From assembly GCA_016875195.1 (NCBI GenBank), contig VGRY01000006.1:27541-91540 (forward strand): a DNA stretch of 64,000 nt, in the 5' to 3' direction. Made by a program: the position numbers and the translations under genes. The DNA comes from Deltaproteobacteria bacterium. GTDB taxonomy: Bacteria > Desulfobacterota > BSN033 > UBA1163. Below, one piece after another: positions 14,062 through 63,025 of the stretch. Each line of letters begins with the position of its first letter. Position 1 is the first letter of the stretch. The notes below the pieces were generated by a model that worked only from the letters and a program-made list of their open reading frames with translations, ran no database searches and had not been told where the DNA came from.

Positions 14062-14068
14062 AACATCA

Positions 14069-14120: not shown

Positions 14121-14122
14121 AA

Positions 14123-14178
14123 ACGATAAAGCGTCGTATGAATGACAAAGGCGTCAGAGTGAATGGACGCCTTTTTTT
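14123..14178 (+). promoter_or_regulatory. ANTAR-type antiterminator/terminator module (gdh leader, copy 2)
   Basis: P1 ACGA-taaagcg-TCGT at 14123-14137. P2 GAC-AAAGGC-GTC at 14144-14155. Terminator GGCGTC..GGACGCC at 14150-14171 plus T7. Confidence 0.7.
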
Positions 14179-14212: not shown

Positions 14213-15460
14213 ATGCCGGAGATGAATCCTTTCATGATTGCTCAGAAGCAACTCGATGTCGCGGCTGAAAGATTAGGCTTGGACCAGGCAACCCATAACC
14301 TTCTTCGCTGGCCCCAGAGAGAACTTCGGGTGACACTTCCTGTGACGATGGATGACGGGAGGGTCCACATTTTTCATGCGTATCGAGTCCAGTACAATAC
14401 GGCCCGGGGACCTGCCAAAGGTGGCCTCCGATGGCATCCGGATGAGACCATAGATACGGTGCGCGCCCTATCAGCCTGGATGACCTGGAAGACAGCAGTG
14501 GTGGATATCCCATTGGGCGGAGGAAAAGGGGGAATCACCTGTAATCCTAAAGGGATGTCTGAAGCTGAGAAACAACGTTTGGCTCGTGCCTATATTCGTG
14601 CAGTTGCACCGATCCTATCCATCTCCAAAGATGTTCCAGCCCCGGATGTCTATACGACACCACAGATCATGGCTTGGATGATGGATGAATATGAAACGAT
14701 CGTGGGACATCATCATCCCGGTGTGATTACAGGAAAACCAATTCCCCTTGGAGGATCTGAAGGTCGGGGAGACGCAACCGCAAGGGGTGGCGTTTATGTC
14801 ACACGGGAAGCAGCCAAAGCCTTAAATATCGATCTCCAGGGGAAAACCATGGCCATTCAGGGGTTTGGGAATGCCGGTCAATATGCCGCTCTCCTCGGAG
14901 CCGAGATTCTCGGGTTAAAACTGGTTGCGGCTTCGGATTCCAAAGGGGGCATCTATAATGCCAAGGGGTTAGACCCTAAAAAAGTGGTGGACCACAAATT
15001 AAGAACGGGTAGCCTGGAGAGATTTGCTGAAGCGGAGAAGATAACCAATGAAGAACTCCTGGAGTTGGACGTCACTGTTCTTTTCCCTTCTGCCCTCGAA
15101 AACGTGATTACGGCGGAGAATGCAAATCGAATCAAGTGTAAGATTTCCTGCGAACTCGCCAATGGGCCCTCAACACCCGAGGCCGACGAAATTCTCCATC
15201 AGAACAATGTCTTTGTCCTTCCCGATTTTCTTGCCAATGCGGGAGGGGTCACTGTATCCTATTTTGAGCAAGTTCAAAATGCCTATAATTTTTACTGGCC
15301 ATTGGAGGAAGTCCACGAAAGGCTCAATGAAAAAATGTCACGGGCATTTCACGGAGTCTACCAGATGTACTTAAAGGAGAAGGTTGATATGAGACAGGCC
15401 GCCTATCTCGTTTCGGTGGCAAGGGTGGCAGAAGCCTGCAAGTTGCGGGGATGGGTTTGA
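14213..15460 (+). CDS. gdhA: Glutamate dehydrogenase (Glu/Leu/Phe/Val dehydrogenase family)
   Basis: [21 protein letters not shown] and the Rossmann motif [12 protein letters not shown] aaaggaga upstream. Confidence 0.93.
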
Positions 15461-40085: not shown

Positions 40086-42266
40086 TTACTCTGGAAGCTT
40101 CACTTCAGGACGGCATATTCTGAGTTTCTGCATCCTTGCTCTCAGGGTGCTTGGGTGGAGGTCCAGAATTTCCGCGGCTCCCTTTAGCCCATTGATGCGC
40201 CACCGGGTTTCAGAAAGAGTCTTAAGAATCTGGTCTCGTTCCGTCTCCGCAAGGGTCCTCAGCGTGGATGGTAATAGGGGAGAGGTATTTTCCAGTTTAT
40301 CCGATAGCTTTAATAGCGGCCCGGAGGACAGGATCACAGCCCGCTCGATGACATTCTCAAGTTCCCGGATGTTTCCGGGCCACGAGTAATCCTGGAGTGC
40401 CTTCATCGTTTCCTTCTGAATTGATGTGATCTGTTTGCCCAGTCCTTTGGAAAGTCTCTCGATGAAGGTCTGAACCAGCAGCGGGATGTCCTCTTTCCGC
40501 TGCCTGAGCGGGGGCACCGTAATGGGAAAGGTGTTGAGCCGATAGTACAGGTCTTGTCGAAAACGACCCTTTCGAACCTCTTCTTCAAGGTTTCGATTGG
40601 TCGTTGCTATAATTCGCACGTCCACTCTGACCGTATGGGAGGAACCCAGACGTTCAAACGCATTGTGCTGGATCACCCGGAGCAACTTGGCCTGGACTTC
40701 CAGTGGTAATTCTCCTATCTCGTCGAGGCAAAGGGTCGAACCATTGGCCACCTCGAACCGCCCCACCTGCCGGGTATCAGCTCCGGTAAATGCCCCCTTC
40801 TCCCGGCCGAACAGCTCGCTTTCAATTAAATTGGCCGGCAGGGCTGCGCAGTTTACGGTGACCAGCGGCCGGTCCTTACGAGGGCTCATCTGATGGATGG
40901 CGGAAGCGATCAACTCCTTTCCCGTACCGGTCTCGCCGAGGATGAGGACCGTCGTGTTCGTCGGAGCGACCTGCTCCGCCCGATGAAGGACGTATTTGAA
41001 GGCATTGCTTTGACCGATGATATGGCCGAACTGGTATTTCAACTTAACTTCTTGCCGGAAGTAAAGATTCTCAGTCTCCAGTTGGTCTTTTAATGTCTTG
41101 ATCTCAGAAAGAGCATTGCGCAGGGATTCCTCCACGCTCTTATGTTCGGTGATGTCGTGGAGAATCTCCATCTTCATAACATCCCCGCGTTCGTTGAGGA
41201 TCGGCGTGCTAAAAGCATCATAGGTCTTGCCGGTTTGTGGCGAATCCCATTCCCACTGGACAGACTTTCCGGCAAATACCTCTTGAATCTTGCACCAGGT
41301 ACAGGGTGTCGGGAGATCATGAAAATAGGCATGGCACTTGCGTCCATTGACCGGGCCATGTTCCTTTTCGATGACGGGGTTAATGTACTGTATGTCACGA
41401 TTTTGATTGGTGATATAGACGCCGTCATTCAGGGATTCCAGGATGCCCTTCAGTTTATTACGTTCCAGTTGCAGGATCTTTTCGGTCTGCCTGCTTCGCT
41501 CGATCTCCTTCTTCAGTTGCTCGTTGGCTCTCTGGAGTTCGACAGTGCGCTCATGGCCCCGCTGCTCCAGGTATTCGAGCAAAGATTCCCGTTCCTCTTC
41601 CATCCTCTTGTTGGTGAGGATGATCGCCATGATTTTACCGAATCCGGAAGCCATGTGTGCGTCGTCTTCGGTGAATCCCCCTGGTTTGTTTGCAAAGCCA
41701 AGCAAACCTATCCCCTCCCCATTGACAATCATTGGAGCAAACAGAACATTAAAAAGCGGCAAAGGTCCTTCCGGCATCAATCTCATACGACCGCCATTCG
41801 AGAAATCATTCTGAAAAACGGCCCGCCTCGTATGGAACACCGTGTCACACAACACCCGAATAGGCATGGCAAGGTTGCAATCGACCGGGTAAGGCAATCC
41901 CTCCGAGTCCAGAAAAAAGACTCCATTTTCTGTGCCCTTCTTATTCAAAAGAGCAACGTATCCTATTTTGGCTCCAAGCAGGTTCTTGCAAGAATCGAAT
42001 AGGGTTTGGGTTGCCTCTTTAAAATCGTTTTGCACCAAGACAGCCTTCGCCCTGCTCATCAACCCCGATATCTCCTCTTGAGACCTCTGAGATTGTCCAA
42101 GAGTCTTAGTAAGAGTTTGCTCTGCTCTGATACGCTGGGCAGCTCTCCCGAGCTGAATGGCATACGCTTTTATCACGTGTGGCTGCCTCTCTAGAAAGGG
42201 ACTCTCATTGTCTATTGCCTTTTCGCCCATATCATCAACCTCAATCGACTTACAATGATTCAGCAA
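40086..42266 (-). CDS. sigma54-dependent transcriptional activator (GAF + PAS + AAA+ + Fis HTH)
   Basis: GETGTGKE Walker A, GAFTGA sigma54-contact loop, C-terminal [22 protein letters not shown]. Confidence 0.9.
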
Positions 42267-43880: not shown

Positions 43881-43896
43881 TGGCACAAGGATTGCT
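43881..43896 (+). promoter_or_regulatory. sigma54 promoter TGGCAC-N5-TTGCT
   Basis: tggcacaaggattgct is a perfect consensus. 11 nt (ctctatactgc, no SD) lie between it and ATG 43908. Confidence 0.75.
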
Positions 43897-44625: not shown

Positions 44626-48879
<4,254 letters not shown>

Positions 48880-48898: not shown

Positions 48899-49087
48899 TT
48901 AGGCCACTTTTTTCTTCTTAAAAACCACAAGAGGTTTTGGCTGGCGACAAACAATTTGTTCCGAAAAGGGTTTCTGCATTTTTTTCAGGTGTTGGTAAAA
49001 TAATTCAGGATCTCGCTTAGCCTCGTTCTCAATCTGTTTTCGTATTCGACGCACTTCCTTTACGATTGGATCAGTCTTCATCTTCAA
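48899..49087 (-). CDS. Small basic hypothetical protein, overlaps the upstream PIN-like gene by 17 nt
   Basis: 62-aa ORF; no family recognised. Confidence 0.4.
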   Translation of the reverse strand: MKMKTDPIVKEVRRIRKQIENEAKRDPELFYQHLKKMQKPFSEQIVCRQPKPLVVFKKKKVA

Positions 49088-49574
49088 CCTCCATAAGTTC
49101 CTCGGGAGTACATACGATGGGTGTGCTAATCCCTTGAACTGTATTTATAGTCTGGACAACCGTCCGAACCCGAGGGTTGAGGATATGACCAAAATTCCAC
49201 GTTACTAAGAAGTCCATGCCGTGAAAAGCTGCCAGGGCAAAGTGATAGGTATCCCCTCTGGCTTTTTCAGGGATCTGTATAGCTCCAAAATAGGTGTCAG
49301 CCAATCGCCGCACCCCATTCGTAATTTCCAGTATCGGGAACTTAGCTATCTTCTCGATGCGCAATCTCGCCGCAGCTTCATCCCCTCGTGATATTTCTTC
49401 GATCACAAGAGATGAAATGAATGGTTCAAATAGTGGTAACCAATTCTCCCACCATTCTGTTGTTACCTGTTGGTGTGCAGCCACAAGCAGATCTCGACTC
49501 GGCCTTGAGGTTAAATAGCTTAACACAGTTGTCTCAATATAAACAGTTTGCTTGGGTATATTCTTCCTTTTCAT
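49071..49574 (-). CDS. PIN-like nuclease domain protein (VapC-like)
   Basis: VYIETTVLSYL..DTYHFALAAFHGMDFLVTWNFGHI resembles the PIN acidic-residue pattern. Confidence 0.45.
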   Translation of the reverse strand: MKRKNIPKQTVYIETTVLSYLTSRPSRDLLVAAHQQVTTEWWENWLPLFEPFISSLVIEEISRGDEAAARLRIEKIAKFPILEITNGVRRLADTYFGAIQIPEKARGDTYHFALAAFHGMDFLVTWNFGHILNPRVRTVVQTINTVQGISTPIVCTPEELMEVEDED

Positions 49575-49893
49575 TTGCTTATTGGCTTTATGCTTCTGTC
49601 AGTTGTACCCATCAACGCATTGTAATATACACCATTTAAAAAATATTTTGAAGTAAATATTTCAGAAAGAAATTTACAGATCCGAATTTCCATTAGATAG
49701 TAGAAATTTATAAGCAGATTACCCTCTCAACGGCTGAGTCAGGTTTCTTCTTTAGGTTCGTAGACGTCCAACGTTAAATCATTAGGGTTATTTTTTTAGA
49801 TAATCAATACCAAAATGGAATTTCCAAAAGATTCCCTGTTTATAACAAATGGATTTATCCAATCCTCCGAAATTCTTTTCCGAAATTCTTTTC

Positions 49894-49922
49894 TTGACTT
49901 AAATAGGAATCTATATTAGAAA
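49894..49922 (+). promoter_or_regulatory. sigma70-type promoter TTGACT-N17-TAGAAA
   Basis: TTGACT 49894-49899 and TAGAAA 49917-49922. The predicted TSS at ~49929 abuts P1. Preceded by a perfect 13-nt tandem duplication at 49867-49892. Confidence 0.5.
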
Positions 49923-49929
49923 TATTAAA

Positions 49930-49983
49930 AATACGAAGCTGTATTGGGGACGAGGGCGTCAAGGTTTATTGACGCCTTTTTTT
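49930..49983 (+). promoter_or_regulatory. ANTAR-type antiterminator/terminator module (kinase operon leader)
   Basis: P1 AATAC-GAAGCT-GTATT at 49930-49945. P2 GAC-GAGGGC-GTC at 49949-49960. Terminator GGCGTCAA-ggttta-TTGACGCC at 49955-49976 plus T7. Confidence 0.75.
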
Positions 49984-50201
49984 ATCCGCCTACGCAGAAG
50001 ACCACCCCGCTCAGCGGGATGGATGAATGCGCATAATTGCCAAAGTAAGTTATGGGTTTATAAATTACTGCTTCGGCGGATTTCGCTGAAGGCGGATAAC
50101 CCTCCGAAGCCTTGGCGTAGGAGGGTATCTTTATGGAGATACTACGAGCTTTGCCCGTGGGGCTCCATCGGTAGCCACTGGCCCAGCGGGTCAACAGTAG
50201 A

Positions 50202-51929
50202 ATGGGATCAATTGGATTGAATAAAAAAAATTCAATTCCCGATGCGAAAGAGATCAATGCTTTGCTTGAGATCAGTAAAGCCATCGCTTCGGGTCTCTAT
50301 CTCGAGGATGTCCTTCGTCTGATCGTGACGGTGACCGCTAATGTGATGGACTCGAAGATCTGTTCTCTCTGGATCCTCGATGAAAGAGATCAGAGGTTGA
50401 AATTAAAAGCCACCCAGTCCATCAGCGAAGAATACCTCAGGGAGAGAAGCCTGGCTCTTGGAGAGGGAGTGGTCGGTCATGTCGCCCTTCATAATAAACC
50501 CATGGCCATTGCCAATGTCCTTCAAGACCCTCTCTATAAGGAGAAAGAGTTAGCAAAGAGGGAAGGATTGGTCTCCATGCTCAGCGTGCCAATGTGCATC
50601 AAGGAGAAGGTGATCGGGGTGATCAACTGTTATTCGTCCTCCCCTCGAACCTTTTCGAAGTCGGAAGAGGAGATGCTCTCAACCGTGGCCAATCAGGCTG
50701 CCATCTGCATCGAAAACTCCGGCCTCATGGAAACCCTCGATATCGATGAAATCCTGAGGCTGGTGCTGGAAGGGGTGATCAAGAACATCGGATTTGATCG
50801 GGCACGACTCTATCTGATCAACGAAAAGAGAAATGTCCTTGAATGCAAGATGGCTGTGGGAGTGGATGTGGAGAAGATCAAAGGGATTGAACTCCCTCTT
50901 ACCCTCGAAAGCAGTGTGGTATCGAGGTCTGTGATTGAAAAGAAACCCTATTTCATTCCCGATGCCAGGAATGACCAAAGGGTCAACCCTGTTTTAAAAG
51001 AGAAATTCAATCTTCACTCCCTCGTGGTCATTCCTCTCTTCACAAAAGAAAAAGTTCTCGGGGTGATTGCCGCAGACCATATCGAACCCGGAAGAAGGCT
51101 GACACAGGAAACGCTCGATTCGGTGATGACTTTTGCTCAACAGGCAGGATTGGCCATTCAAAATGCCTCCATGTATCAGGAGCTCAAGAATTTCAGCCAG
51201 CAGATGGAGGAGAAGATTGAAAAGACAACTGCGGACCTCAGAAAAACAGAGGCTCAGTTGATTCGGTCTGAAAAACTGGCAGCCCTGGGTCAACTGGCCG
51301 CAGGCATTGCCCATGAAATCCGAAATCCTCTGACCAGCATCAACATCCTCATTCATTCGATGAGGGAGAAATTGCCCTCTGAACATTCACAGCAGGAAGA
51401 CCTGAAAGTGATCGAAGAGGAAATCTATCGCATGGATGAGATCGTCAGCCAGTTTCTTCGATTCGCAAAACCCGCTTCTCCATTCCTTGAAAAAACAGAT
51501 CCCCTCTCTATTTTTGAGGAGATCCTTCAATTGCTCAGGCCTCAGATAGAAAGGCAACGCATCATGGTTGAAAAGGAGTTCCAAGCCCTTCCTATGATCC
51601 TGATCGACCGTGAGCAGATGAAACAGGCCATGCTCAATCTTCTGCTCAATGCCATCCAGGCCATGCCGAAAGGAGGTCATCTGATCCTTTCAGGTCGGAA
51701 TTCCGAAGATGGCCAATGGGTTTGTCTATCCGTCCAGGACTCCGGAATAGGAATCTCTTCAGAAGACATGGATAAACTGTTCGACCCCTTCTTCTCCACA
51801 AAAGAGGGGGGAATGGGCCTTGGCCTCTCCATCACCCATCGCATCATTGACCAGCATCATGGAAAGATTGAGGTGAATAGCATCCCTGAAAAGGGAACGC
51901 TTTTTACAGTTTGGTTACCTATTTCATGA
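50202..51929 (+). CDS. Sensor histidine kinase: GAF-GAF-HisKA-HATPase_c
   Basis: First GAF is 106/157 identical to the GAF of the ANTAR protein (hand alignment). H-box AHEIRNPLTSI. N/G boxes LLLNAIQAM and DSGIGI..GGMGLGL. Confidence 0.9.
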   Translation: MGSIGLNKKNSIPDAKEINALLEISKAIASGLYLEDVLRLIVTVTANVMDSKICSLWILDERDQRLKLKATQSISEEYLRERSLALGEGVVGHVALHNKPMAIANVLQDPLYKEKELAKREGLVSMLSVPMCIKEKVIGVINCYSSSPRTFSKSEEEMLSTVANQAAICIENSGLMETLDIDEILRLVLEGVIKNIGFDRARLYLINEKRNVLECKMAVGVDVEKIKGIELPLTLESSVVSRSVIEKKPYFIPDARNDQRVNPVLKEKFNLHSLVVIPLFTKEKVLGVIAADHIEPGRRLTQETLDSVMTFAQQAGLAIQNASMYQELKNFSQQMEEKIEKTTADLRKTEAQLIRSEKLAALGQLAAGIAHEIRNPLTSINILIHSMREKLPSEHSQQEDLKVIEEEIYRMDEIVSQFLRFAKPASPFLEKTDPLSIFEEILQLLRPQIERQRIMVEKEFQALPMILIDREQMKQAMLNLLLNAIQAMPKGGHLILSGRNSEDGQWVCLSVQDSGIGISSEDMDKLFDPFFSTKEGGMGLGLSITHRIIDQHHGKIEVNSIPEKGTLFTVWLPIS

Positions 51930-51974
51930 TGACCGATGAACCATCATCTGTTCATCGTATTGAAAGGGGCAAAC

Positions 51975-53414
51975 ATGCAGACGATCCTCATTGTTGACGA
52001 TGATAAATCGATCCGCTACTCTCTGAAAAGGATGCTGGAAGATCATTTTTCCATCCTCACTGCCCAGAATGGAGAAGAAGCCCTATCGCGCATGAAAGAA
52101 TCTTCCCCTGATCTGATCATCATGGATATCAAGATGCCTGGCCGGAACGGAATCGATGTGTTGAAGGAGATGAAGTTCCTTGACCCGAAGTCCCTCATCA
52201 TTCTGATGACCGCCTATGGCACTACAGAGACGGCGATCGAGGCGATGAAATTTGGGGCTTTCGATTACATCCTCAAACCTTTCCCGATTCCACAGATGAA
52301 AGAGTTGGTGCAAAAGGCGATCGCATTGCGGAAACTGATGAAGGAAGAAGTCTCCTATGCATCCGAACCGGATCAACAAAAAGAGGAAGAACAGATCATC
52401 GGTTCCGCTCCCAAGATGCAGGAGATCTATAAGGTGATCGGACAGGTGGCTCCCAGCGATGTCACTGTCCTCCTCAGAGGCGAGAGTGGAACGGGAAAGG
52501 AATTAGTGGCACGTGCAATCTATCACTACAGCCTCCGTTCGAGCTACCCGTTTCTTCCGGTCAATTGTGCTGCCATCCCGGATACCCTTCTCGAAAGTGA
52601 ACTCTTCGGCCATGAAAAAGGAGCTTTTACCGGTGCCATCTCCAGGCGCATCGGAAAACTGGAACAATGTCAGGGAGGGACCATTTTTCTGGATGAAATC
52701 GGTGACATGTCTCTCTCCACTCAGGCCAAACTCCTCAGAATCCTTCAGGAAAAGACTTTTGAAAGGCTTGGGGGAAGGGAAACGCTCAGGGTGGATATTC
52801 GATTTATCGTGGCAACGAATAAAGATCTTGAAGAGGCGATGGTCAGGGGGGAATTTCGTGAAGACCTCTATTACCGGCTCAATGTGGTCTCTATCAAGAT
52901 TCCTCCTTTAAGGGAAAGAAAAGAGGATATCCCGAACCTCACCTCTTACTTCTTAAAAAAATTCAATCGTGATTTAAAGCGGAAGGTCGCCGGGATCACT
53001 CCATCGGCAATGGGAAAAATCACCTCCTACGGATGGCCAGGAAATGTGAGACAATTGGAAAATGTTCTGAAAAGAGCCGTGCTCCTCTGCCAGGGAGAAT
53101 GGATTCTTGATGATCAACTCCTTCTTGATGTAGAAGAGAGACGAGAGGCTGCAGAGGTTCTGAAAGGAAAGACATTCGAGGGCCTACTCGATTCCCTCTT
53201 TATGGAACTCACGGAAACCTCCCCGGACCGGGAAGGTCTGGATATGGTTTCAGCCATTGAGAAAGGGTTGATCCTTCGTGCCCTTCAAAAGACGAACGGA
53301 AACCAGGTTCAGGCAGCTTCGCTTCTCGGAATCAATCGGGGCACGCTCCGGAGCAAAATGGAGCGGTATCACATTAGAAAAGAGGTGCTGGTTTCCGAAG
53401 AGGATAATGAATAA
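51975..53414 (+). CDS. NtrC-family sigma54-dependent response regulator (REC-AAA+-Fis HTH)
   Basis: MQTILIVDDD..DLIIMDIKMPG, GESGTGKE, GAFTGA, and C-terminal AASLLGINRGTLRSKM. ATG 51975 with SD aagggg is preferred over 51936. Confidence 0.9.
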   Translation: MQTILIVDDDKSIRYSLKRMLEDHFSILTAQNGEEALSRMKESSPDLIIMDIKMPGRNGIDVLKEMKFLDPKSLIILMTAYGTTETAIEAMKFGAFDYILKPFPIPQMKELVQKAIALRKLMKEEVSYASEPDQQKEEEQIIGSAPKMQEIYKVIGQVAPSDVTVLLRGESGTGKELVARAIYHYSLRSSYPFLPVNCAAIPDTLLESELFGHEKGAFTGAISRRIGKLEQCQGGTIFLDEIGDMSLSTQAKLLRILQEKTFERLGGRETLRVDIRFIVATNKDLEEAMVRGEFREDLYYRLNVVSIKIPPLRERKEDIPNLTSYFLKKFNRDLKRKVAGITPSAMGKITSYGWPGNVRQLENVLKRAVLLCQGEWILDDQLLLDVEERREAAEVLKGKTFEGLLDSLFMELTETSPDREGLDMVSAIEKGLILRALQKTNGNQVQAASLLGINRGTLRSKMERYHIRKEVLVSEEDNE

Positions 53415-53589: not shown

Positions 53590-53605
53590 TGGCATATTAT
53601 TTGCT
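53590..53605 (+). promoter_or_regulatory. sigma54 promoter TGGCAT-N5-TTGCT upstream of glnA
   Basis: tggcatattatttgct with canonical spacing. The predicted TSS at ~53616 is 4 nt before P1. Confidence 0.75.
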
Positions 53606-53619
53606 ATTAATATTTCGTT

Positions 53620-53684
53620 AATACGATGGGGTATTAGAATGACAAGGGCGTCTTTCTTAAAACGGAGAGACGCCTTTTTATTTT
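53620..53684 (+). promoter_or_regulatory. ANTAR-type antiterminator/terminator module (glnA leader)
   Basis: P1 AATAC-GATGGG-GTATT at 53620-53635. P2 GAC-AAGGGC-GTC at 53641-53652. Terminator GGCGTCTTTC-ttaaaacg-GAGAGACGCC at 53647-53674 plus TTTTTATTTT. Confidence 0.75.
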
Positions 53685-53690
53685 AATAAA

Positions 53691-53799: not shown

Positions 53800-55122
53800 A
53801 TGGACAAAGCAACTGTATTGAAGATGGCGAAGGAGAATGATGTCAAATTTATCCGACTCTGGTTTACGGACATTCTGGGATTTCTGAAGGGGTTTTCGAT
53901 CACCATCCATGAACTCGAAGGGGCCCTTGAGGAAGGCATGGGGTTTGATGGTTCCTCGATCCAGGGATATGCTCGAATCGACGAAAGCGATATGATCGCT
54001 AAGCCTGACCCAAAGACCTTCCAGATCATCCCGTGGCGACCCAAAGAGAATGCAGTAGCCCGGATGTTTGCCGATGTCTATGAACCTGATGGAACCCCCT
54101 ACAAAGGCGACCCCAGATTCGTCTTAAAAAAGACTCTTAAGAAGGCGCATGACCTTGGATATACCTTATATGTCGGGCCTGAACTGGAATATTTCTACTT
54201 TAAAAGCAGTGATGGGGCGCCACAGATTCTTGATAAAGGAGGATATTTTGACCTCACCCCTCTGGATGTGGCAACCGAACTCCGGCGTGAAACCATTCTC
54301 ACACTTGAAGCCATGGGTATCAGGGTGGAATACAGCCATCACGAGGTAGCCCCGAGCCAGCATGAGATCGATCTCCGTTATGCCGAGGCTCTGAGCATGG
54401 CAGACAATGCCATGACCTATCGCCTCGTGGTGAAGGAGGTTGCATTGAGACACGGTGTCTACGCCACATTCATGCCCAAACCCATTTTTAAACAGAACGG
54501 AAGCGGGATGCACACCCATCAGTCCCTTTTCAAGGGTGACACGAATGTCTTCTTCGATCCGAAGGATGAATTCCATCTTTCAAAGATTGCCAAGTCTTAT
54601 ATGGCCGGAATTTTAAAACATTCAAAGGAAATCACCTCCATCACCTCCCAGTGGATCAACTCTTACAAAAGACTTGTCCCAGGATACGAAGCGCCGGTCT
54701 ATATCGCCTGGGCCCGGAGAAACCGTTCGGCACTGGTCCGGGTTCCCATGTATAAACCTGGAAAAGAGAAAGCCACACGGATGGAACTCCGCTCCCCCGA
54801 TCCGGCATGCAATCCCTATCTGGCCTTTGCTGTCATGTTGGCTGCAGGCCTGAAGGGAATCGAGAAGGGTTATGAACTTCCGTCTCCTGTTGAGGAGGAC
54901 ATTTTTGAGATGTCTGAAGAGGCACGGAAAAGACACGGAATCGAATCGCTTCCGGGAAGTCTATATGAAGCCATCCAGCTCACCGAACAGAGTGAACTGG
55001 TAAGAGAAACCCTTGGAGACCACATCTTCCATAAATTCATTGAAAACAAGAAGATCGAATGGGATCAGTACCGGACCCACATCTCCCAGTTCGAATTGGA
55101 GAAGTATCTGCCTATTCTTTAA
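53800..55122 (+). CDS. glnA: Glutamine synthetase type I, paralog 2 (complete, 440 aa)
   Basis: GMGFDGSSIQGY, GPELEYFYF, HHEVAPSQHEIDLRY, NGSGMHTHQSLF, RVPMYKPGKEKATRMELRSPD. SD aaggagga upstream. Confidence 0.95.
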   Translation: MDKATVLKMAKENDVKFIRLWFTDILGFLKGFSITIHELEGALEEGMGFDGSSIQGYARIDESDMIAKPDPKTFQIIPWRPKENAVARMFADVYEPDGTPYKGDPRFVLKKTLKKAHDLGYTLYVGPELEYFYFKSSDGAPQILDKGGYFDLTPLDVATELRRETILTLEAMGIRVEYSHHEVAPSQHEIDLRYAEALSMADNAMTYRLVVKEVALRHGVYATFMPKPIFKQNGSGMHTHQSLFKGDTNVFFDPKDEFHLSKIAKSYMAGILKHSKEITSITSQWINSYKRLVPGYEAPVYIAWARRNRSALVRVPMYKPGKEKATRMELRSPDPACNPYLAFAVMLAAGLKGIEKGYELPSPVEEDIFEMSEEARKRHGIESLPGSLYEAIQLTEQSELVRETLGDHIFHKFIENKKIEWDQYRTHISQFELEKYLPIL

Positions 55123-55429: not shown

Positions 55430-58400
55430 GTGAGCCAGAAGAGAGAAAAGTTAGCCTGGAGAAAGTATATTGAAGATTTTTTACAGCAAAGCCCGGACTT
55501 GAAGGCCATTTCCGACCCAGAGAAACTCGAATACTACCGGAATGACCTCAATGTGGACCTCCCGCCTTTGATCCGGGGCCTGATGCTCAAAAGCCTTCCC
55601 GACCTTATTCTCCAGCCTGCAACTGAAGAACACCTCCTCAATATCTTTGCATTTGCAAGCAAACATAAAATCCCTTTAACCGCCAGGGGCGCGGGAACAT
55701 GGGGTTACGGTGGAGCTGTCCCAACCCGCGGAGGAATTGTTATCGACCTTAGCTCGATGGATACGATTGAGGTTGATCCAGGAACCCTCCAAGTGACAGT
55801 TGGACCGGGAGCTCGTTTTGCCGATATCCACGCAGAACTTGAAAGACACGGCCTCACCTTACTTACCATGACATCCGGCAAGGGCGGAACCCTTGCAGGC
55901 TGGATGGCTACGGGTGGAATGGGATTCGGAACCTATTATCACGGACCAGTAAAGAATCAGATCATTTCCCTGCGGGTCATTACCCCTGATGGAAATGTTC
56001 TGAATCTAAAAGGGGATGATCCTGAGATCAACCATTTCCTCTCAACAGAAGGGCAGATGGGAATCATCGTAAAGGCCATATTGAAGTCTGGGCAAAAACC
56101 AGCCCATTGGTTTCCATTTGTCGTCCCTTTCGAAAAGGCATCTAACGCATATGCATTTGTCAGTAAACTTGACCGCCATCCATTTATCAAACCCCATGAC
56201 CTCATCGTCTATCATGCAGGATTGGCGCGCGTCCTCCAGTCAAAGTCAAATGGAAGATTGACTGTTGGAGATAAACATCTCGTTCTCATTGCCTTCGCTG
56301 ACCAGGAGCAGTCTCAATTGTTTAGACTCTACCTGGATGAGAGTGGAATTCAAATAGCAGATGAGGAATCAGCCTCTTTTCTCTGGGAGGAACGATTCCT
56401 TCCGATATCCATCAAGCACCTCGGCCCTTCTCTCTTAGCGACAGAGGTGATCCTGCCGCTTGATCAAGTGGGAGCCTATGAAGAAAAGATAAGTGAGTGG
56501 GGGAAGCGGTTGGGCTTAACTTTCTATTCCTCTTCCCATCTCATCAATCGAGATCAGGTCCTCTTTCTTGCCATGATCACCTCTGATCACAGGAAGGCCA
56601 TCTTCTACATCGACCTCATGCTCGTTCCGATGATGGTCAGGCTGGCCATTCAGTTTTACAGCGGAAAGCCCTACGGTCTGGGAATATGGAACACGCCTTT
56701 TCTCCGTGACCTCTTTTCAAAAGAAGAAGTGACAAAACTGGTTCAATATAAGAAGAAGGTAGACCCTCATGGAATCCTCAATCCGGGAAAGTTTTTTACT
56801 GTATCTGGAAAACTGGGTCCTCTTCAGAAGATGATCTTTCATTCGGATATCTTCAACCTCGAACTCACCGCGATGAACTGGCTTCTCTTCAAGCTCTTCT
56901 CCATCATTCCTGAGAAGACCCTTAGGCAGCAACTGCCAGCTTCACCCCTGGGGCTTGAAGGGGTTTCAAATGAGGTCAACTCCTGCGCCCAGTGCGGAAA
57001 TTGTGTCTCCCGATGTCCAGTTTATCGGGCAACAAGAGATGAAACCTTCTCAGCGAGAGGCAAACTTCTGACGATCAAGAGGGCAATGGAGACGAAGAAG
57101 ATCGAGCTGTCAAAGGTCTTACCTCTCTACTTCTGTCTCCACTGCGGCCGTTGTGATGAAGAGTGCCAGGTCAACATCAAACATCGCCCACTTTACAGCA
57201 ACCTCGAAGCCCATTTCTCCAGTACCATCGACTTCCCGATCCAGGAGGTGACCCGCTTCATCCAGGAAGTTGAAAATAGTCCGGAGTTCTACCGGTTCCT
57301 CGACGTGATCAGAACGGGGTTCGACCAGAAAGTTCGTGAACAGCGGCAGACGTTCCCCAGGTACCATGTGGCGATTGACGACGAACACTGTATCCATTGT
57401 GGGACCTGCGTCGATGCCTGCATCTACGGTGTTCGAAAACGTGACGAGAAAGATCCACGTTGCGTGGTGATTGCCGATGAAGCGCTCTGCCGGGGCTGCG
57501 GTTCCTGTCTTGAGCGTTGCCCACAGGTCGCCAAAGGAATCCCGGCAACCACTGTGGAACTCCACCCGGATTACCTGAGCATGCACGACCCGTACTGGAC
57601 GAGTGAAGCCATCACCCGTATCGACCTCGAAGCCACCACCGGAAAGATCCCTGTTTCCGGGACTGGACAGGGAGATCCCCATCGCGGTTACGGCAATGAC
57701 GGGATTCGCTTCGGCCACTTTCATATTGTCGGCCCTGCTCAGAACCTCCTCTATGAAAGTTCTGAGGATGCCATCTCGATCCTGATTGGACAAAGGCCAA
57801 AATACCTGACCTTTGACGGGGAAACTCTCAAAACCCCGCCTCCACGGTTGATCCATTTAAAGACACCCCTGATCCTCGATATCATGCCCATGGATGGAGG
57901 AGAAGATCTGTTGGAGCCCATGTTCGAGGCAGTCCAGCAAACAGGAACCCGACTGACGCTCCGCCTCGAAGAGTTGGAACGTTATGAGTCGCGGATTGCC
58001 GATCGGATGAAGAATCTAATATTGAGATTAACTTCTGAAGACTTGAAAAGCCTTCTCAATGGAAAGGCATGGCCGGAGGTGTTGAAAAACAATCCTCCTG
58101 ATCTGGTCGAAATCGAGCTGGAGGGAGAAGCCTTAAAAAAGGCAGAGAAAATTTCAGCGCTCCTCCCGAATTCGGTTCTCTGTGCTGTCATTAAAATTGA
58201 AAAGGGATTTGTTGATGCAGAGCTTCGGCCCACCTCTGCCCTGAAGAAAAAACTGGAGTCCCTCTTCGAATCGCCTTTTGATGCTATCTGCCTCACTTCT
58301 GATTATGATTCAGAAAAAGGGTACTACCCCACTACCGATGCTGTTCCTGCTGTTCACCGTTTTCTCGTAGAAAAGAAAATTCGCCATCGCTTTTCTATCC

Positions 58401-61400
58401 TGGCAGCTGGTGGAATCCGTTCTGCAGCCGATTCTCAGAAAACGATCCAGCGCGGTGCAAATGGGATCAAGATCGATTGGCCGGTCCTTCTGGCTGCCAA
58501 TCCTCAAGCACGACAGAAATTTTCACAGGGAGAGCGCCTCCATCTTCTCCATGATTCCTCCTCCCTAACCAAACGGATCACCCACCTTATTCGGGTCTGG
58601 AATGTCCAGATCATTGAAGTCTTGGGCGCTTCAGGGTTTAAGGATATTAAAAAGACGGTTGGAGAGGAAAACCGTCTCCTCATCTTCGATGACCTCGAAG
58701 AAAGGGTCTATGACATTTTCAAAAACAAAGATTGCATTGAAAGAAACCGTGTGACTAATCTGGCACGTCTCCAGAGGGAAGGCAAAGGTGATGGCTGGAA
58801 ATACAGTCAATTGAAGAATTTGATCAAACCTACTCAATCCCCTCACCGGTTCTATAGCTGCAGCCTGAAGTCTTCCTGTTACCAGATTTTCGACCGCGAT
58901 TATGTCTGGCCAGCCTCTCTGATTGCTTCGGTGGGCCATATGGCAAGTGGAAATCCAGAAACGCTTCAACTTGGCCACACAGAGGAGCGCGGGAATTTAG
59001 GGGATGGTTTTGATTTCATACAGGTCCTCTTTCAACGCAACCCCGATACCCTTTCGGAAGATCTCATTGACCATGTCTCCACCAGTCTTCAGATCAATCC
59101 TGAATTGAGGCTAAAAGCCCCCTTTATTGGAGCAGGAATGTCAGTGGGTTCAATCGGACCTGGAACCTGGCGCGCCCGGGTCCTGGCCACTCGTGCCCTT
59201 GGGACACAGATGGACACGGGTGAAGGAGGATATCCCACTTTCTATATCCTCGATGAAAAGTGGAACTCTATTGATTTGACCGACGCACAGGTTCTCCTGC
59301 TTGGCCAGATCATGGAGCCCCGGAAATTGATTCCCATGGCTGAGTTGATCAGAAAGGTCCAGGAAGAATTGGCAGAATCTCCTGAAATTGAAAAAATTCT
59401 ACAGGTTCTCCAGAAATATCCGGCCTCCAGGACTGTTCAGTTTGTCCCAATCGTCTTGCACGAAGACGAACCTTATGTCTCCACCCAGCTCAAGACAGGT
59501 CTCTTTGGGGTAACCAAGGAGACGATTCGGAAGGCACGTCGTGTGGTAATCGCGTACAGCCAGGGAGCAAAACAGGGTGTGGGCGGTCATCTATTAGGCC
59601 GAAAAGTGTTTGGTCTGGTCTCAAGGCTCCGCGGCGTGGCAGAAGGGGTCAGCCTCATCTCCCCCTTCCCCTTCCATAATTGCTACTCCATTGAAGATGT
59701 GAAGGCCTTCATCGATGCAGTACGCATGATCAACCCGCAGGCCTCGATCTGCATCAAGGTCTCCCCATCGCCTGATATCGAGTTTATCGTCTCCGGGCTC
59801 GCCCGGATTGCCAAGGACAACAGGATGGCCATTGAGGTCTGGCTCGATGGGCCTCGCGGAGGGACAGGTGCAGCCCCAGACATCATCAAGGGTCAGATGG
59901 GAATGCACATCGAATATGCCATCCCCATCTGTCATGAGAAATTGATTAGTGATGGACTGAGAGATAACGTCGTTTTCCTGGGAAGCGGTGGATTTCGCAC
60001 CTGGGGAGATATGGTGAAAGGCATAGCCATGGGGTTGGATGGCATTGTCCTCGGTACCTCTGATCTGGTTGCTATTGGCTGTGTTCGTGACCGCAATTGC
60101 GAGTCAGGATGTCGAAGTGGAATCTCAACGATTGAACCCAAAATGCAATTGCTAAGAGATGTCGGGATCAACACCCAGCAGTTGATCAATTTCCGTGCCA
60201 TCTTACAGGCTCAGGTTGCAAGGGCTGTCGCGGGCCTTGGATTGGAAGACATCCGTGAACTTCGGGGCCGATATGATCTGATTCAATGGCCTGTGCTCGA
60301 AGAAAGGGTCCAGGAGCGTCGTCGCCGTCGTTCTGAGATCTCAATCAAGGAACCGTCACGAATCTATCCCTCTGATTCATTCCCTCATTATACATTGAGC
60401 GAATCAGCACCTCCTCCTTCGGATTGTGGTGTGGCAGCGATCGTCTCCAACCATTTCATCCCGAGCCATGTGATGGACCTGATGCTCGACCGGATGGCAA
60501 ACCGTGGAATGGACGGTGTGGGCATATGGAAAGGAGGATGTTACCCGGCTCATATCGACCACTATGCCTTCCATGTCCTGATTAAAGGGACTCTCCAGCC
60601 TCAGGTTGAAGAAAAATTCTCGTTAGCCCATCCGAACCTGAATTCTGAAGAGGTCCGGCAAATGGCCCGGAGAAAAATTCTCTCTAACCGACGTCTCCTC
60701 ATGCGAGAGATTCTGGAGAAATATTTCTATGGTCTTCAACTCGATTCATTCGATGGGGATCTGGAGAAATGGAGAATTCCGTATAAACGCGATGAAAACG
60801 GAAGGGAGAGAGATTTTCTATATTATGGAGAAAGAGATCCCGGAGATGTTTTCCGGTTCTTTGTCCGCGTCCTGCCGCCCGAACTCTTTCGCTTCATTGA
60901 AGATGAGTTACTCAATGATCCCATTTGGCCCCCACGACAGGTCCGTTACCAACATCTGACCGTTCAAAATTATAGGGAGAATAAGGAATTTCTGCGGGAA
61001 GCTGAGGACGAATATATCTATCGACTCTCACGTAAGATCACTCGTGAGAATTATGTAGAAGCTCACCAGAAGAAGGCATCTGTACTCTCCTGTGGTAAAA
61101 ACTCCGGCTGCTGGAAGACGGATGGTCAACATATCCCATGGGAAACTCCGGATGCTCCGGTCAATGTGATTCATAGACGGCTGGCCACGGGATCTGTGGT
61201 GGATCAGATGAACTCCCATCCTTTTGCCGAACTGCACACAGCATTGACGCATAATGGAGAGACGACGAATTATCGCACCATGTTGAATCGGGTTTCCCAA
61301 ACGAACTTAACACCGCTGGCTCAAACCGACACCGCAGTAGCTTCCCTGAAGCTCCATCTGCTCAGTCAGTATCTCCACTATCCCTTTGATGCCCTGGTAG

Positions 61401-63025
61401 AATCCTTCTCTCCCACCACAGGTTGGAGCTTGACCCAATTCTCCTCTGAGGTCAGAGAGCGTTTTGAGCGCGTGCAGGAGGTTGAGCTGGAAAGCGCTCC
61501 AGATGGCCCCTACCAATACCTCTGTGGCCGGATTGACCCTTATCAACGGGTGATTGAACGGCTCGATGTCATCGATCCTTCCCTGCTCAGGCCTAATGTG
61601 GCCATGCTTTATGATGACGGAGAAAACTTCGCGTCCATCATCTGTTCCGAGAAACAGGGCTGTGATGCAGGAATGCAGGAACTTCACCGGTTGGGATTGA
61701 CCAAAAGTACGGTTGCTCCAGTCACTTTAACCGTTAACCCCGGGATGGTAAGTAGAGTATTTTACGATGAGAACGGGAAGATTTCAGGCTATGAGGTCCT
61801 CGATAAATTTGGAAAGAAACTGGACATCCCTCATGGAGCTTTCCCCTCTTCAGAACCTATCTTCTCTATAGGAGATTCTGAAAAAATAGATTCAGGATCC
61901 AATCCTTCAGCTTTCATCCGTGAACGACTGCCTCAATGGGGGTTTGGTGAGTTTAAAAAGGAACTGGATAAAATTTCAGAAAATTTCCCTTCCCAGCAGG
62001 TCATTGAGGAACTTGCCCGGATCCACGATCATCTGCCAGGCTGGGATACCGGAAATAAGGATAGGGGAGCTTTAATTCATATCGTGCGGGACCAGATCGA
62101 TTCATGTCTCGACCGTGGGAAAGAAAAAGACGGAATGTCCCGCGTCACCATATCCAATGCTAAAACATTGAATCCGCCCAAAGATCCTGCTCAGGTGCTG
62201 GTAGTGGACGCCAAAGGATTTCAGCCCGAAGGCATTGAACCGTTCCGGGTTCTCAATCCTTTCCTCAACCATGCCCACCGAATGGGATGGCGTAAGTTTA
62301 TTGTCTATCGAGTAGAGGGGCAGCGGGGTATCGGTATGGGCATAGGTTCCGGTGATACCTCAGATACGACGATAGATGTCTTTGGAAGCCCTGGCGAGTA
62401 TTGCGGGGCCTTTAATATGGGGGCTTTGGTCCGTGTCCATGGACACGCACAGAATTTTACCGGCATGGTCATGCATTCCGGCACACTCGAAATCCACGGA
62501 GATGTGGGCAAGGTGATAGGATACTCTGCAAAAGGCGGCACGTTTAACATCTTAGGAAATGTCGTTGATCGAGGCTGGGTCTGTGCGGTCAGTGACCCGC
62601 GAGGTCCAGGATTGCAGGTCAATGTCGTAGGGACGGCCTATGAACATCTCTGTCAGGCGTTGATGGGGGGATCGGTCATCATGCTGGGACTCTTTCGGAG
62701 CAATGACGGAATTCTTCATAGGATGGATTCCCCATATCATGGAGCCAAGATCCTTGCCGGTGCATCTGCCGGGGAGATCATCTTCTACGATCCCGCGAAA
62801 AGATTGGAAGAGGCTCAATACGGAAGTGGTAGAGTAAATCCCATTGACCAGAAAAAATGGGAGGAAATTATGAACCGCCTGATGAACCTTGAAAAGATTT
62901 TTGGTCTCGGGATTCTCAGAGAGAACAACCATCTCACAGTCTGTATTGACAAGCAGCGACAGGATATGACTCCTGATGATTTTATATGGATTGCCCCAAA
63001 GGGGGAACTGGCAGGCTATCATTAA
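55430..63025 (+). CDS. Giant fusion protein: FAD-linked oxidase (GlcD-like) + GlcF-like and ferredoxin-type Fe-S + divergent TIM barrel + GltS FMN domain + class II (Ntn) glutamine amidotransferase + GXGXG domain
   Basis: GTG start with SD aaggtgagg. Residues ~60-470: FAD_binding_4/oxidase-C (ARGAGTWGYGG..VDPHGILNPGKFF). ~518-590: CAQCGNCVSRCP..CLHCGRCDEEC. ~650-700: CIHCGTCVDAC..CRGCGSCLERCP. ~1180-1640: GAGMSVGSIGPG..DTGEGGYP..SQGAKQGVGGHLLGRKV..SPFPFHNCYSIEDV..DGPRGGTGAAP..GC..C..GC. From Cys1666: CGVAAIV..HNGETTNYR. ~2255-2480: GSPGEYCGAFN..GHAQNFTGMVMHSGTLEIHGDVG. Confidence 0.85.
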   Translation: MSQKREKLAWRKYIEDFLQQSPDLKAISDPEKLEYYRNDLNVDLPPLIRGLMLKSLPDLILQPATEEHLLNIFAFASKHKIPLTARGAGTWGYGGAVPTRGGIVIDLSSMDTIEVDPGTLQVTVGPGARFADIHAELERHGLTLLTMTSGKGGTLAGWMATGGMGFGTYYHGPVKNQIISLRVITPDGNVLNLKGDDPEINHFLSTEGQMGIIVKAILKSGQKPAHWFPFVVPFEKASNAYAFVSKLDRHPFIKPHDLIVYHAGLARVLQSKSNGRLTVGDKHLVLIAFADQEQSQLFRLYLDESGIQIADEESASFLWEERFLPISIKHLGPSLLATEVILPLDQVGAYEEKISEWGKRLGLTFYSSSHLINRDQVLFLAMITSDHRKAIFYIDLMLVPMMVRLAIQFYSGKPYGLGIWNTPFLRDLFSKEEVTKLVQYKKKVDPHGILNPGKFFTVSGKLGPLQKMIFHSDIFNLELTAMNWLLFKLFSIIPEKTLRQQLPASPLGLEGVSNEVNSCAQCGNCVSRCPVYRATRDETFSARGKLLTIKRAMETKKIELSKVLPLYFCLHCGRCDEECQVNIKHRPLYSNLEAHFSSTIDFPIQEVTRFIQEVENSPEFYRFLDVIRTGFDQKVREQRQTFPRYHVAIDDEHCIHCGTCVDACIYGVRKRDEKDPRCVVIADEALCRGCGSCLERCPQVAKGIPATTVELHPDYLSMHDPYWTSEAITRIDLEATTGKIPVSGTGQGDPHRGYGNDGIRFGHFHIVGPAQNLLYESSEDAISILIGQRPKYLTFDGETLKTPPPRLIHLKTPLILDIMPMDGGEDLLEPMFEAVQQTGTRLTLRLEELERYESRIADRMKNLILRLTSEDLKSLLNGKAWPEVLKNNPPDLVEIELEGEALKKAEKISALLPNSVLCAVIKIEKGFVDAELRPTSALKKKLESLFESPFDAICLTSDYDSEKGYYPTTDAVPAVHRFLVEKKIRHRFSILAAGGIRSAADSQKTIQRGANGIKIDWPVLLAANPQARQKFSQGERLHLLHDSSSLTKRITHLIRVWNVQIIEVLGASGFKDIKKTVGEENRLLIFDDLEERVYDIFKNKDCIERNRVTNLARLQREGKGDGWKYSQLKNLIKPTQSPHRFYSCSLKSSCYQIFDRDYVWPASLIASVGHMASGNPETLQLGHTEERGNLGDGFDFIQVLFQRNPDTLSEDLIDHVSTSLQINPELRLKAPFIGAGMSVGSIGPGTWRARVLATRALGTQMDTGEGGYPTFYILDEKWNSIDLTDAQVLLLGQIMEPRKLIPMAELIRKVQEELAESPEIEKILQVLQKYPASRTVQFVPIVLHEDEPYVSTQLKTGLFGVTKETIRKARRVVIAYSQGAKQGVGGHLLGRKVFGLVSRLRGVAEGVSLISPFPFHNCYSIEDVKAFIDAVRMINPQASICIKVSPSPDIEFIVSGLARIAKDNRMAIEVWLDGPRGGTGAAPDIIKGQMGMHIEYAIPICHEKLISDGLRDNVVFLGSGGFRTWGDMVKGIAMGLDGIVLGTSDLVAIGCVRDRNCESGCRSGISTIEPKMQLLRDVGINTQQLINFRAILQAQVARAVAGLGLEDIRELRGRYDLIQWPVLEERVQERRRRRSEISIKEPSRIYPSDSFPHYTLSESAPPPSDCGVAAIVSNHFIPSHVMDLMLDRMANRGMDGVGIWKGGCYPAHIDHYAFHVLIKGTLQPQVEEKFSLAHPNLNSEEVRQMARRKILSNRRLLMREILEKYFYGLQLDSFDGDLEKWRIPYKRDENGRERDFLYYGERDPGDVFRFFVRVLPPELFRFIEDELLNDPIWPPRQVRYQHLTVQNYRENKEFLREAEDEYIYRLSRKITRENYVEAHQKKASVLSCGKNSGCWKTDGQHIPWETPDAPVNVIHRRLATGSVVDQMNSHPFAELHTALTHNGETTNYRTMLNRVSQTNLTPLAQTDTAVASLKLHLLSQYLHYPFDALVESFSPTTGWSLTQFSSEVRERFERVQEVELESAPDGPYQYLCGRIDPYQRVIERLDVIDPSLLRPNVAMLYDDGENFASIICSEKQGCDAGMQELHRLGLTKSTVAPVTLTVNPGMVSRVFYDENGKISGYEVLDKFGKKLDIPHGAFPSSEPIFSIGDSEKIDSGSNPSAFIRERLPQWGFGEFKKELDKISENFPSQQVIEELARIHDHLPGWDTGNKDRGALIHIVRDQIDSCLDRGKEKDGMSRVTISNAKTLNPPKDPAQVLVVDAKGFQPEGIEPFRVLNPFLNHAHRMGWRKFIVYRVEGQRGIGMGIGSGDTSDTTIDVFGSPGEYCGAFNMGALVRVHGHAQNFTGMVMHSGTLEIHGDVGKVIGYSAKGGTFNILGNVVDRGWVCAVSDPRGPGLQVNVVGTAYEHLCQALMGGSVIMLGLFRSNDGILHRMDSPYHGAKILAGASAGEIIFYDPAKRLEEAQYGSGRVNPIDQKKWEEIMNRLMNLEKIFGLGILRENNHLTVCIDKQRQDMTPDDFIWIAPKGELAGYH

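Follow-up and report, generated by a model that had tools for sequence, protein, structure and literature searches.

Sensor domains are well known to be shared promiscuously between one- and two-component regulators. In Geobacter sulfurreducens, a sigma-54-dependent two-component system (GnfL/GnfM) and an ANTAR antiterminator with its kinase (GnfK/GnfR) act jointly on nitrogen genes (PMC2995071). ANTAR proteins recognize RNA elements with dual hexaloops in which position 4 is a G and position 1 an A or G (PMC3369931), and the combination of a GAF sensor domain with an ANTAR output domain has been listed as an architecture without being characterised (PMC3369931, PMC7496416). With respect to nitrogen signals, EI-Ntr's GAF domain binds glutamine (PMC4848567), and that of NifA responds to 2-oxoglutarate and GlnB (PMC3854208). 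Here we describe a GAF-ANTAR one-component regulator and a cytoplasmic sensor histidine kinase that carry two copies of one GAF domain; both are encoded on a 64,000-nucleotide stretch (the window) of a Deltaproteobacteria bacterium (GCA_016875195.1; contig VGRY01000006.1, positions 27,541 to 91,540). The window is a nitrogen-assimilation island with two glnA genes, a GOGAT-like gene, gdh, nadE, a GATase gene, amtB, the genes for PII, the kinase and an NtrC-like regulator, and glnD (Table 1). We report the homology of the two sensor domains, the mosaic structure of the kinase, the age of the duplication, the synteny of the locus, and the presence, specificity and conservation of its RNA modules and promoter sequences; new are the specific conserved pair, the exchange of sensor modules on one kinase core, and a predicted regulon that links the two proteins.

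The first GAF domain of the kinase (GAF1) and that of the ANTAR protein align without gaps over 157 residues at exactly the positions given by the initial annotation, and its hand count of 106 identical residues is reproduced by ungapped BLASTP (67.516%); the five sequence motifs quoted there are all found in the proteins. When the full-length proteins are compared, 111 of 171 aligned residues are identical (65%; E 1e-76), and the DNA similarity that had been noted by eye amounts to 70.5% over 471 nt, with a longest identical run of 15 nt. This similarity is specific, since the second GAF domain of the kinase (GAF2) is only 26-27% identical to either duplicated copy, and the sole other GAF domain of the window, that of a 726-aa NifA/FhlA-like GAF-sigma54-HTH activator (40086-42266, - strand), gave no match to the duplicated GAF in BLASTP or phmmer at E ≤ 1. 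Generic GAF resemblance can thus be ruled out, as can a low-complexity artefact, because the identical residues are distributed over the entire domain. That the two copies serve different outputs is borne out by Pfam: the ANTAR protein ends in an ANTAR domain, and the kinase contains HisKA (PF00512, 57 bits) and HATPase_c (PF02518, 93 bits) with the H-box AHEIRNPL in its translation. The Pfam GAF scores (PF01590/PF13185) are 135 bits for the kinase, in two stretches, and 78 bits for the ANTAR protein (cutoff 22.4).

Alignments with relatives indicate that the kinase is a mosaic. In four loci of a sister lineage (L045, L049, L050 and L052), a GAF-ANTAR gene and a GOGAT-like gene are followed by the genes for an 892-aa kinase, which thus occupies the locus position of the window-type kinase, and an NtrC-like regulator. 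This larger kinase (L045, 8814-11492, + strand) has the Pfam architecture Ammonium_transp-GAF-HisKA-HATPase_c, whereas Pfam finds no Amt domain in the window kinase. Residues 176-575 of the window kinase correspond to residues 489-892 of the L045 protein with 202 of 404 positions identical (50%), and the alignment begins at residue 176, the exact point at which the resemblance to the ANTAR protein breaks off; homology to GAF-ANTAR proteins extends over residues 14-176. Because the homology to the L045 core starts where the ANTAR-type similarity ends, the kinase is to be read as a composite protein, and a domain shuffle is directly supported. From these alignments, one GAF2-kinase core takes either an Amt ammonium-sensor module or an ANTAR-type GAF1, which suggests that GAF1 fills a nitrogen-sensing slot, as this is the place of the Amt sensor in the sister lineage.

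The age of the duplication was assessed with a homologue scan that used one genome per species; of the 260 relatives found, the best 80 were kept, all of them from uncultured Thermodesulfobacteriota metagenome-assembled genomes (MAGs) labelled Deltaproteobacteria, Syntrophaceae or Syntrophorhabdus. Both genes occur in 19 genomes of this set, the window included, and no third GAF copy at similar identity was found in these 19. A set of 79 GAF domains (41 of the kinase type and 38 of the ANTAR type, with the window's own pair) was then compared. The identity between kinase-type and ANTAR-type GAFs is 0.675-0.764 within genomes and 0.66-0.78 between genomes, while the kinase GAF1 domains share 0.79-0.99 among themselves; the GAF1 of the window kinase is 92-94% identical to those of other genomes and 67.5% identical to the GAF of its own ANTAR protein. 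All 41 kinase GAF1 domains form one clade in 97 of 100 neighbour-joining bootstraps, so that the copies cluster with their orthologues and not with the ANTAR GAF of the same genome. For the window pair, the Nei-Gojobori method gives a proportion of synonymous differences (pS) of 0.635, a synonymous divergence (dS) of ~1.41 and a non-synonymous divergence (dN) of 0.229, with dN/dS ~0.16, and the codons agree at no more than 61 of the 106 identical residues. The duplication is thus an old one that has been conserved, with synonymous sites near saturation; the DNA similarity reflects amino-acid constraint and not youth. Hence, of the "recent domain duplication or shuffle" proposed in the initial annotation, the domain-level duplication and shuffle stand, and the recency does not. 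A split of all ANTAR GAFs from kinase GAF1 plus outgroup was recovered in only 2 of 100 bootstraps, for which reason the kinase GAF1 probably arose within the ANTAR-type radiation, as far as a tree rooted with a distant outgroup can tell. An exhaustive search of representative proteins with the GAF domain yielded no informative sister group, because giant proteins with many GAF domains ranked above single domains through their added-up scores. As a separate observation, an 854-bp MEGAHIT contig (L083, 1-854; ERZ27227668 k141_3282308) encodes a 235-aa protein (P0023) with a kinase-type GAF (best DNA match to the kinase gene of L034, 83.6%) and an ANTAR domain (best match to L054, 83%); the two paralogues may have recombined naturally to give this gene, or the contig is a chimera of the assembly.

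The nearest relatives of the duplicated domain with solved structures are GAF domains of PtsP (EI-Ntr) and NifA-like proteins: the PtsP GAF 3ci6 is the best sequence match (E 9e-17), followed by the Geobacter GAF 3e0y, the PtsP GAF 3trc and the GAF of the Aquifex NifA-like protein Nlh1. Among the NCBIfam profiles, both GAFs align to the N-terminal GAF of PtsP (kinase GAF1 at positions 5-159 of PRK11061), and the ANTAR protein also matches the NifA N-terminus (TIGR01817, positions 2-182). An AF2 (AlphaFold2) model of the ANTAR protein (predicted local distance difference test score 82.9) has a GAF fold, with helices on either side of an antiparallel sheet, followed by a long helix (147-197) and a bundle of helices at the C-terminus; in Foldseek searches with this model, GAF domains came out on top, with target-normalised template-modelling (TM) scores of up to 0.87 and GAFs of the PtsP/NifA type at ranks 1, 2 and 4, those of PtsP (3ci6 and 3trc) being the best matches. 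By analogy, the domain is most likely a PtsP/NifA-type GAF that reads the cellular nitrogen status, and its signal could be glutamine, 2-oxoglutarate or a PII protein.

Upstream of the kinase operon and of glnA2 lies an RNA element that consists of a hairpin AAUAC-hexaloop-GUAUU, a short linker, a second hairpin GAC-hexaloop-GUC, and an intrinsic terminator that uses the 3' half of the second hairpin (P2) as its 5' arm; folding and a terminator scan both place the terminators over P2. A covariance model (R1) built from 44 modules matches the window seven times with 31.6-45.6 bits, the next best hit scoring 10.5 bits; all seven matches are on the + strand and lie in four leaders, namely those of the kinase operon, glnA2, the GOGAT-like gene and gdh, and the module at 12141 was outside the training set. 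A strict pattern scan of both strands found modules only in these four leaders, with 0.47 expected from shuffled sequences. In 78 related loci there are 58 module matches, all on the gene strand and mostly 5' of the GOGAT-like gene and gdh that precede the kinase operon. Position 4 is a G in both hexaloops of all 44 modules, position 1 is a purine in all but one, and the first hairpin (P1) shows compensatory changes at three of its five pairs. Searches against Rfam gave no match for the modules, either at the gathering threshold or, for the leaders, at permissive E-values. The intergenic region between glnA1 and the GAF-ANTAR gene contains neither a module nor a sigma-54 promoter, only a sigma-70-like site (1028-1056). 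A module stands directly 5' of the kinase in only 3 of 38 related loci, because in the others it precedes the GOGAT-like gene or gdh, which in turn precede the kinase in the operon. The GOGAT-like gene starts at the ATG at 12225, behind an AAGGAGG ribosome-binding site; the mechanically called start of its open reading frame (ORF), TTG 12141, overlaps the third module.

Two further features of the leaders may be recorded here. A promoter-like element CTTGAC(A/T)-N17-TA(A/G)AA(A/G) is located ~35 nt 5' of the first hairpin at 11990-12030, 14030-14068 and 49884-49928, and in L045 at 6978-7010 with ATAATA as the second hexamer; the sigma-70 scan did not list these CTTGAC-type elements because of their weak -10 hexamers. 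Since the leaders share this element, the whole promoter-plus-module unit is suggested to be paralogous among them. Between the terminator of the kinase leader and the kinase start, there is a relatively GC-rich spacer of 217 nt (49985-50201, +) with a folding energy of -84.7 kcal/mol (z -3.07), which may be a relic of a relocation of the kinase operon.

The second arm of the system concerns transcription initiation. In all five loci where glnA2 follows the regulator gene (the window, L025, L029, L031 and L043), a sigma-54 promoter of the TGGCATATTATTTGC type is found 27-30 nt 5' of the glnA2 module, and the predicted promoter TGGCACAAGGATTGC ahead of the GATase-amtB-PII-glnD operon is kept in L002, L004, L017, L023, L025, L039 and L043. 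The NtrC-like regulator, which would act at both types of promoter, has the architecture REC-sigma54-HTH_8 and scores 494 bits against the NtrC profile TIGR01818, under its cutoff of 558.6; AtoC scores equally well. The kinase, with a GAF-GAF N-terminus instead of a PAS domain, is not an NtrB equivalog, as it reaches 120 bits against PRK11073, where the cutoff is 240.

We propose the following model, which we regard as reasonably probable as a whole: a nitrogen signal is sensed twice, by the two copies of the GAF domain, and the two responses converge on glnA2. A cytoplasmic GAF domain of the PtsP/NifA type would have been duplicated long ago in an uncultured, Syntrophaceae-like lineage of the Thermodesulfobacteriota, one copy staying on the one-component antiterminator and the other being fused ahead of a GAF2-HisKA-HATPase core. 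With its GAF domain in the active state (we infer this sign of the response), the ANTAR protein would bind the paired hexaloop hairpins in nascent leaders and block the overlapping terminator, so that RNA polymerase could continue into the GOGAT-like gene, gdh, the operon of kinase and regulator, and glnA2. For its part, the kinase would phosphorylate the NtrC-like regulator, and the sigma-54 promoters of glnA2 and of the GATase-amtB-PII-glnD operon would fire. As predicted ANTAR-type modules precede both the kinase operon and glnA2, antiterminator and kinase appear to be wired together; the antiterminator would gate the synthesis of its own sensor paralogue in a feed-forward loop, and glnA2 would be under a feed-forward AND gate, because initiation and read-through would both be needed.

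Several points weigh against this model. In many bacteria, gdh and glnA are oppositely regulated, yet they carry the same module here. The module alignment came from a scan that requires the stems, so that the percentage of paired positions is partly circular, and the third module (12141) is without a clear terminator stem. The GAF tree is rooted with an outgroup of 26% identity, which leaves the polarity weak, and the grouping of the kinase GAFs with the type-B ANTAR proteins is found in 52 of 100 bootstraps. Ligand binding, RNA binding and phosphotransfer are predicted from sequence for every member of the system. Finally, about 64 kb of the genome are in view, so that another ANTAR protein could be the real binder, and two of the five columns of the GAF alignment that are family-specific carry non-conservative exchanges (D25/G31 and R105/L111) that could alter specificity, the second of them in a loop that may form part of the pocket wall.

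The alternative that survives best, which is nevertheless improbable in our estimation, accepts the common ancestry of the two GAF domains and supposes that their functions have diverged: they would read different signals (e.g., glutamine versus 2-oxoglutarate), or GAF1 would be a structural or dimerisation module and GAF2 the true sensor of the kinase. It can draw on the five family-specific columns with their D to G and R to L exchanges, on the 32% of residues that differ between the copies, and on the fact that the counterpart of GAF2 is the only GAF domain in the Amt-fused relatives. It has to contend with a pattern of conservation, mapped on the predicted secondary structure, in which 69 of 157 columns (44%) have one residue common to the two families, at a conservation of 95% or more across the 79 sequences, at a dN/dS of ~0.16 for the window pair. 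So many residues fixed in common with a paralogue would be unexpected in a purely structural module, the comparison being one of columns and not of pocket positions. As hardly any change has been tolerated in either copy, a common signal for the two is probable.

Somewhat less probable still is the possibility that the modules are real and are read by another ANTAR protein encoded elsewhere in the genome, for instance a phosphorylated receiver-ANTAR protein like GnfR of Geobacter, in which case the two GAF proteins would not be wired together. The limited stretch of genome in view leaves room for such a protein, and the Geobacter system, with a REC-ANTAR protein acting on sigma-54-transcribed nitrogen genes, provides a precedent (PMC2995071). 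The arrangement of the genes points in the other direction. At least 14 loci of different genomes have the GAF-ANTAR gene a few kb upstream of the kinase operon and on its strand, and in most of these the modules directly follow the GAF-ANTAR gene, ahead of the GOGAT-like gene or gdh and the kinase and regulator genes; in the type-B lineages, a GAF-ANTAR gene is retained, with a variant module between it and the GOGAT-like gene. The 797 kb of related loci, screened only against the proteins of the window, revealed no further ANTAR gene. Because its gene so often sits immediately upstream of the modules, the GAF-ANTAR protein would be their cognate binder.

A further alternative, which we consider rather unlikely, views the shared GAF domain as a protein-protein interface, through which both regulators would dock to the same partner (PII/GlnB-GlnK) or the two GAFs would heterodimerise and thereby couple kinase and antiterminator physically. 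The genes for PII and GlnD are part of the same cluster, an interaction of the NifA GAF with GlnB is documented (PMC3854208), and among the conserved residues are those of the two terminal helices (N and C), which make up the dimer interfaces of GAF domains; set against this, the nearest solved relatives, the GAF domains of PtsP, are small-molecule sensors (PMC4848567). As an extension to which we give still less credence, the two GAF domains might constitute one physical switch, by heterodimer formation or by competition for one PII protein, so that kinase activity and antitermination would be reciprocally coupled on top of the feed-forward loop; if true, such a switch would represent a nitrogen regulator of hybrid one-component/two-component type that is new to description. 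The remaining alternative, in which the two genes of this genome were duplicated recently or are still undergoing gene conversion, can be rejected with near certainty: the DNA identity with its in-register runs, a pS within the genome that is lower than in several comparisons of orthologues across genomes (0.72-0.94), and the hybrid gene on one metagenome contig speak for it, whereas the near-saturated dS, the different codons used for many identical residues, the clustering of orthologues in the well-supported kinase clade, and the shared codon usage of one genome, from which a low within-genome pS is expected, speak against it.

The features on which the model of one duplicated sensor with two converging outputs is built are collected in Table 1, together with the genes around them.

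Table 1. Genes, domains and predicted regulatory elements of the window (coordinates are positions in the window)
Feature	Position	Strand	Remarks
glnA1	1-945	-	N-terminal 313 codons, incomplete at the window edge; diverges from the GAF-ANTAR gene
GAF-ANTAR one-component regulator gene	1088-1792	+	234 aa, TTG start; Pfam GAF residues 28-164 (E 1e-21), ANTAR residues 177-227 (E 1e-22)
GAF of the ANTAR protein	1127-1597	+	Residues 14-170; paralogue of kinase GAF1
ANTAR RNA-binding output domain (predicted)	1616-1768	+	Residues 177-227; PF03861 80 bits (cutoff 27.3), profile positions 4-54 of 54
Three tandem modules before the GOGAT-like gene	12030-12064, 12083-12117, 12141-12175	+	R1 45.6, 41.1 and 31.6 bits; terminators 12054-12081 and 12113-12127
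GOGAT-like gene	12225-13877	+	Glu_synthase domain, 550 aa; directly 5' of the kinase operon in most relatives
Two tandem modules before gdh	14068-14101, 14123-14157	+	Leader feature 14068-14178; R1 38.4 and 34.3 bits; terminators
gdh (glutamate dehydrogenase)	14213-15460	+	Predicted to be module-controlled; gdh, kinase and regulator genes contiguous in many relatives
Sigma-54 promoter TGGCACAAGGATTGC (predicted)	43881-43895	+	Before the GATase-amtB-PII-glnD operon
amtB, PII gene, glnD	44626-48879	+	amtB 44626-45933, PII 46029-46367, glnD 46357-48879; nitrogen-status machinery between the two GAF regulators
Module, kinase operon leader	49928-49962	+	P1 AAUAC-GAAGCU-GUAUU, P2 GAC-GAGGGC-GUC; R1 41.6 bits, E 1.4e-8; also in strict scan
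Intrinsic terminator over P2, kinase operon leader	49952-49986	+	11-bp stem and U-run
Kinase gene	50202-51929	+	575 aa; cytoplasmic sensor histidine kinase, GAF1-GAF2-HisKA-HATPase_c (Pfam)
Kinase GAF1 (segment flagged in the initial annotation)	50259-50729	+	Residues 20-176; ANTAR-type sensor domain
Kinase core GAF2, HisKA, HATPase_c	50727-51929	+	Residues 176-575; common to the Amt-fused kinases of the sister lineage
NtrC-like response regulator gene	51936-53414	+	492 aa; REC, sigma-54 AAA+, HTH_8 (Pfam); cognate partner of the kinase by adjacency
Sigma-54 promoter TGGCATATTATTTGC (predicted)	53590-53604	+	Upstream of glnA2, 28 nt before its module
Module, glnA2 leader	53618-53654	+	R1 40.5 bits; also in strict scan
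Intrinsic terminator over P2, glnA2 leader	53644-53685	+	14-bp stem
glnA2, type I glutamine synthetase	53800-55122	+	Pfam; TIGR00653 545 bits; predicted target of both outputs

The core gene order in relatives is glnA (on the opposite strand), GAF-ANTAR gene, GOGAT-like gene, in some cases a PPDK-like gene, gdh, kinase, regulator, nadE, GATase gene, amtB, PII gene and glnD. The divergent arrangement of glnA (-) and the GAF-ANTAR gene (+) is kept in ~20 loci, and kinase and regulator genes are adjacent in all complete related loci; orthologues of the kinase (565-585 aa, 78-91% identity) are present in many Thermodesulfobacteriota/Syntrophaceae MAGs. In the window, this cluster is split, and the two GAF genes are 49 kb apart.

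Other genes of the window deserve a brief mention. The partial glnA1 product and that of glnA2 are identical at 211 of 310 residues (68%), the same divergence as that of the GAF pair, and each glnA gene adjoins one GAF regulator; from the matching divergence, regulator and glnA could stem from an old block duplication. Behind glnA2, as in L025, there is a 2531-aa ORF (55430-63025, +) with the domains FAD_binding_4, 4Fe-4S, Glu_synthase, GATase_6 and GXGXG, a giant single-chain GOGAT-like fusion. A 167-aa ORF (49071-49574, -) between glnD and the kinase leader has no Pfam match; it is also present in the near-identical contig L001, beside a 60-aa gene call, and looks like a small inserted cassette. 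Directly downstream of the GAF-ANTAR gene, and at the same place in L002, a 581-aa membrane protein with NnrS/COX1-like and DUF1858/ScdA_N domains is encoded (2044-3789, -), which may provide a link to nitric-oxide stress.

GAF-ANTAR regulators are a large class, as one homologue search returned ~2,000 close relatives, and the papers found, up to 2020, contain no account of a characterised member. The locus provides a nitrogen-related signal context for such a protein, predicted RNA targets, and an internal control in the form of the same sensor on a kinase. In nature's own experiment, sensor modules have been cleanly exchanged here, with either an Amt or an ANTAR-type GAF domain on one kinase core, and the locus makes directly testable how one input domain drives unrelated outputs. 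If the model holds, it predicts a new nitrogen-control wiring in uncultured syntrophic Thermodesulfobacteriota, in which a sigma-54 master system would be gated at the RNA level and glnA would be under dual control, and this predicted wiring could guide the annotation of their MAGs.

When the individual parts are compared with known systems, the GAF domain finds its best sequence, profile and fold matches in the N-terminal GAFs of PtsP (EI-Ntr) and NifA (3ci6, 3trc, PRK11061, TIGR01817 and Aquifex Nlh1, 4g3k), yet the identity is only ~23-26%, and the outputs of those proteins are a phosphoenolpyruvate phosphotransferase and an AAA+ activator. The kinase and the regulator resemble NtrB/NtrC in that a kinase and a REC-sigma54-HTH activator are encoded beside a glnA gene with a sigma-54 promoter; they differ in the GAF-GAF input that replaces PAS and in profile scores that stay below both cutoffs. 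The L045 homologue shares with the characterised Ks-Amt5-type ammonium sensor kinases (PMC5764959) the fusion of an Amt domain with a cytoplasmic kinase for sensing the supply of nitrogen, and has an additional GAF domain between Amt and HisKA, whereas the window kinase is without an Amt or membrane part and carries GAF1 in that slot.

On the RNA side, the modules share with the dual-hexaloop targets of EutV, NasR, AmiR and NasT (PMC3369931, PMC8934654) the pairing with an ANTAR domain protein, two hexaloop hairpins with an invariant G at position 4 and an A or G at position 1, a second hairpin that overlaps an intrinsic terminator, and the association with nitrogen genes. They are set apart by the GAF sensor of their putative binder, by a G at the first loop position in a minority of modules, and by the absence of an Rfam family. 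The closest counterpart of the system as a whole is the Gnf cascade of G. sulfurreducens (PMC2995071), in which a sigma-54 two-component system and an ANTAR antiterminator are likewise combined; its targets resemble glnA2 in having a leader terminator behind a sigma-54 promoter, and gdh belongs to its regulon. In that cascade, a dedicated kinase serves the ANTAR protein, which is a phosphorylated response regulator, and GnfL uses a PAS domain for sensing, whereas the 234-aa protein described here has no Response_reg domain in Pfam and is a one-component regulator whose GAF sensor domain also occurs on the master kinase. A further difference from the Gnf cascade is the inverted hierarchy that is predicted here, as ANTAR modules would gate the kinase operon itself.

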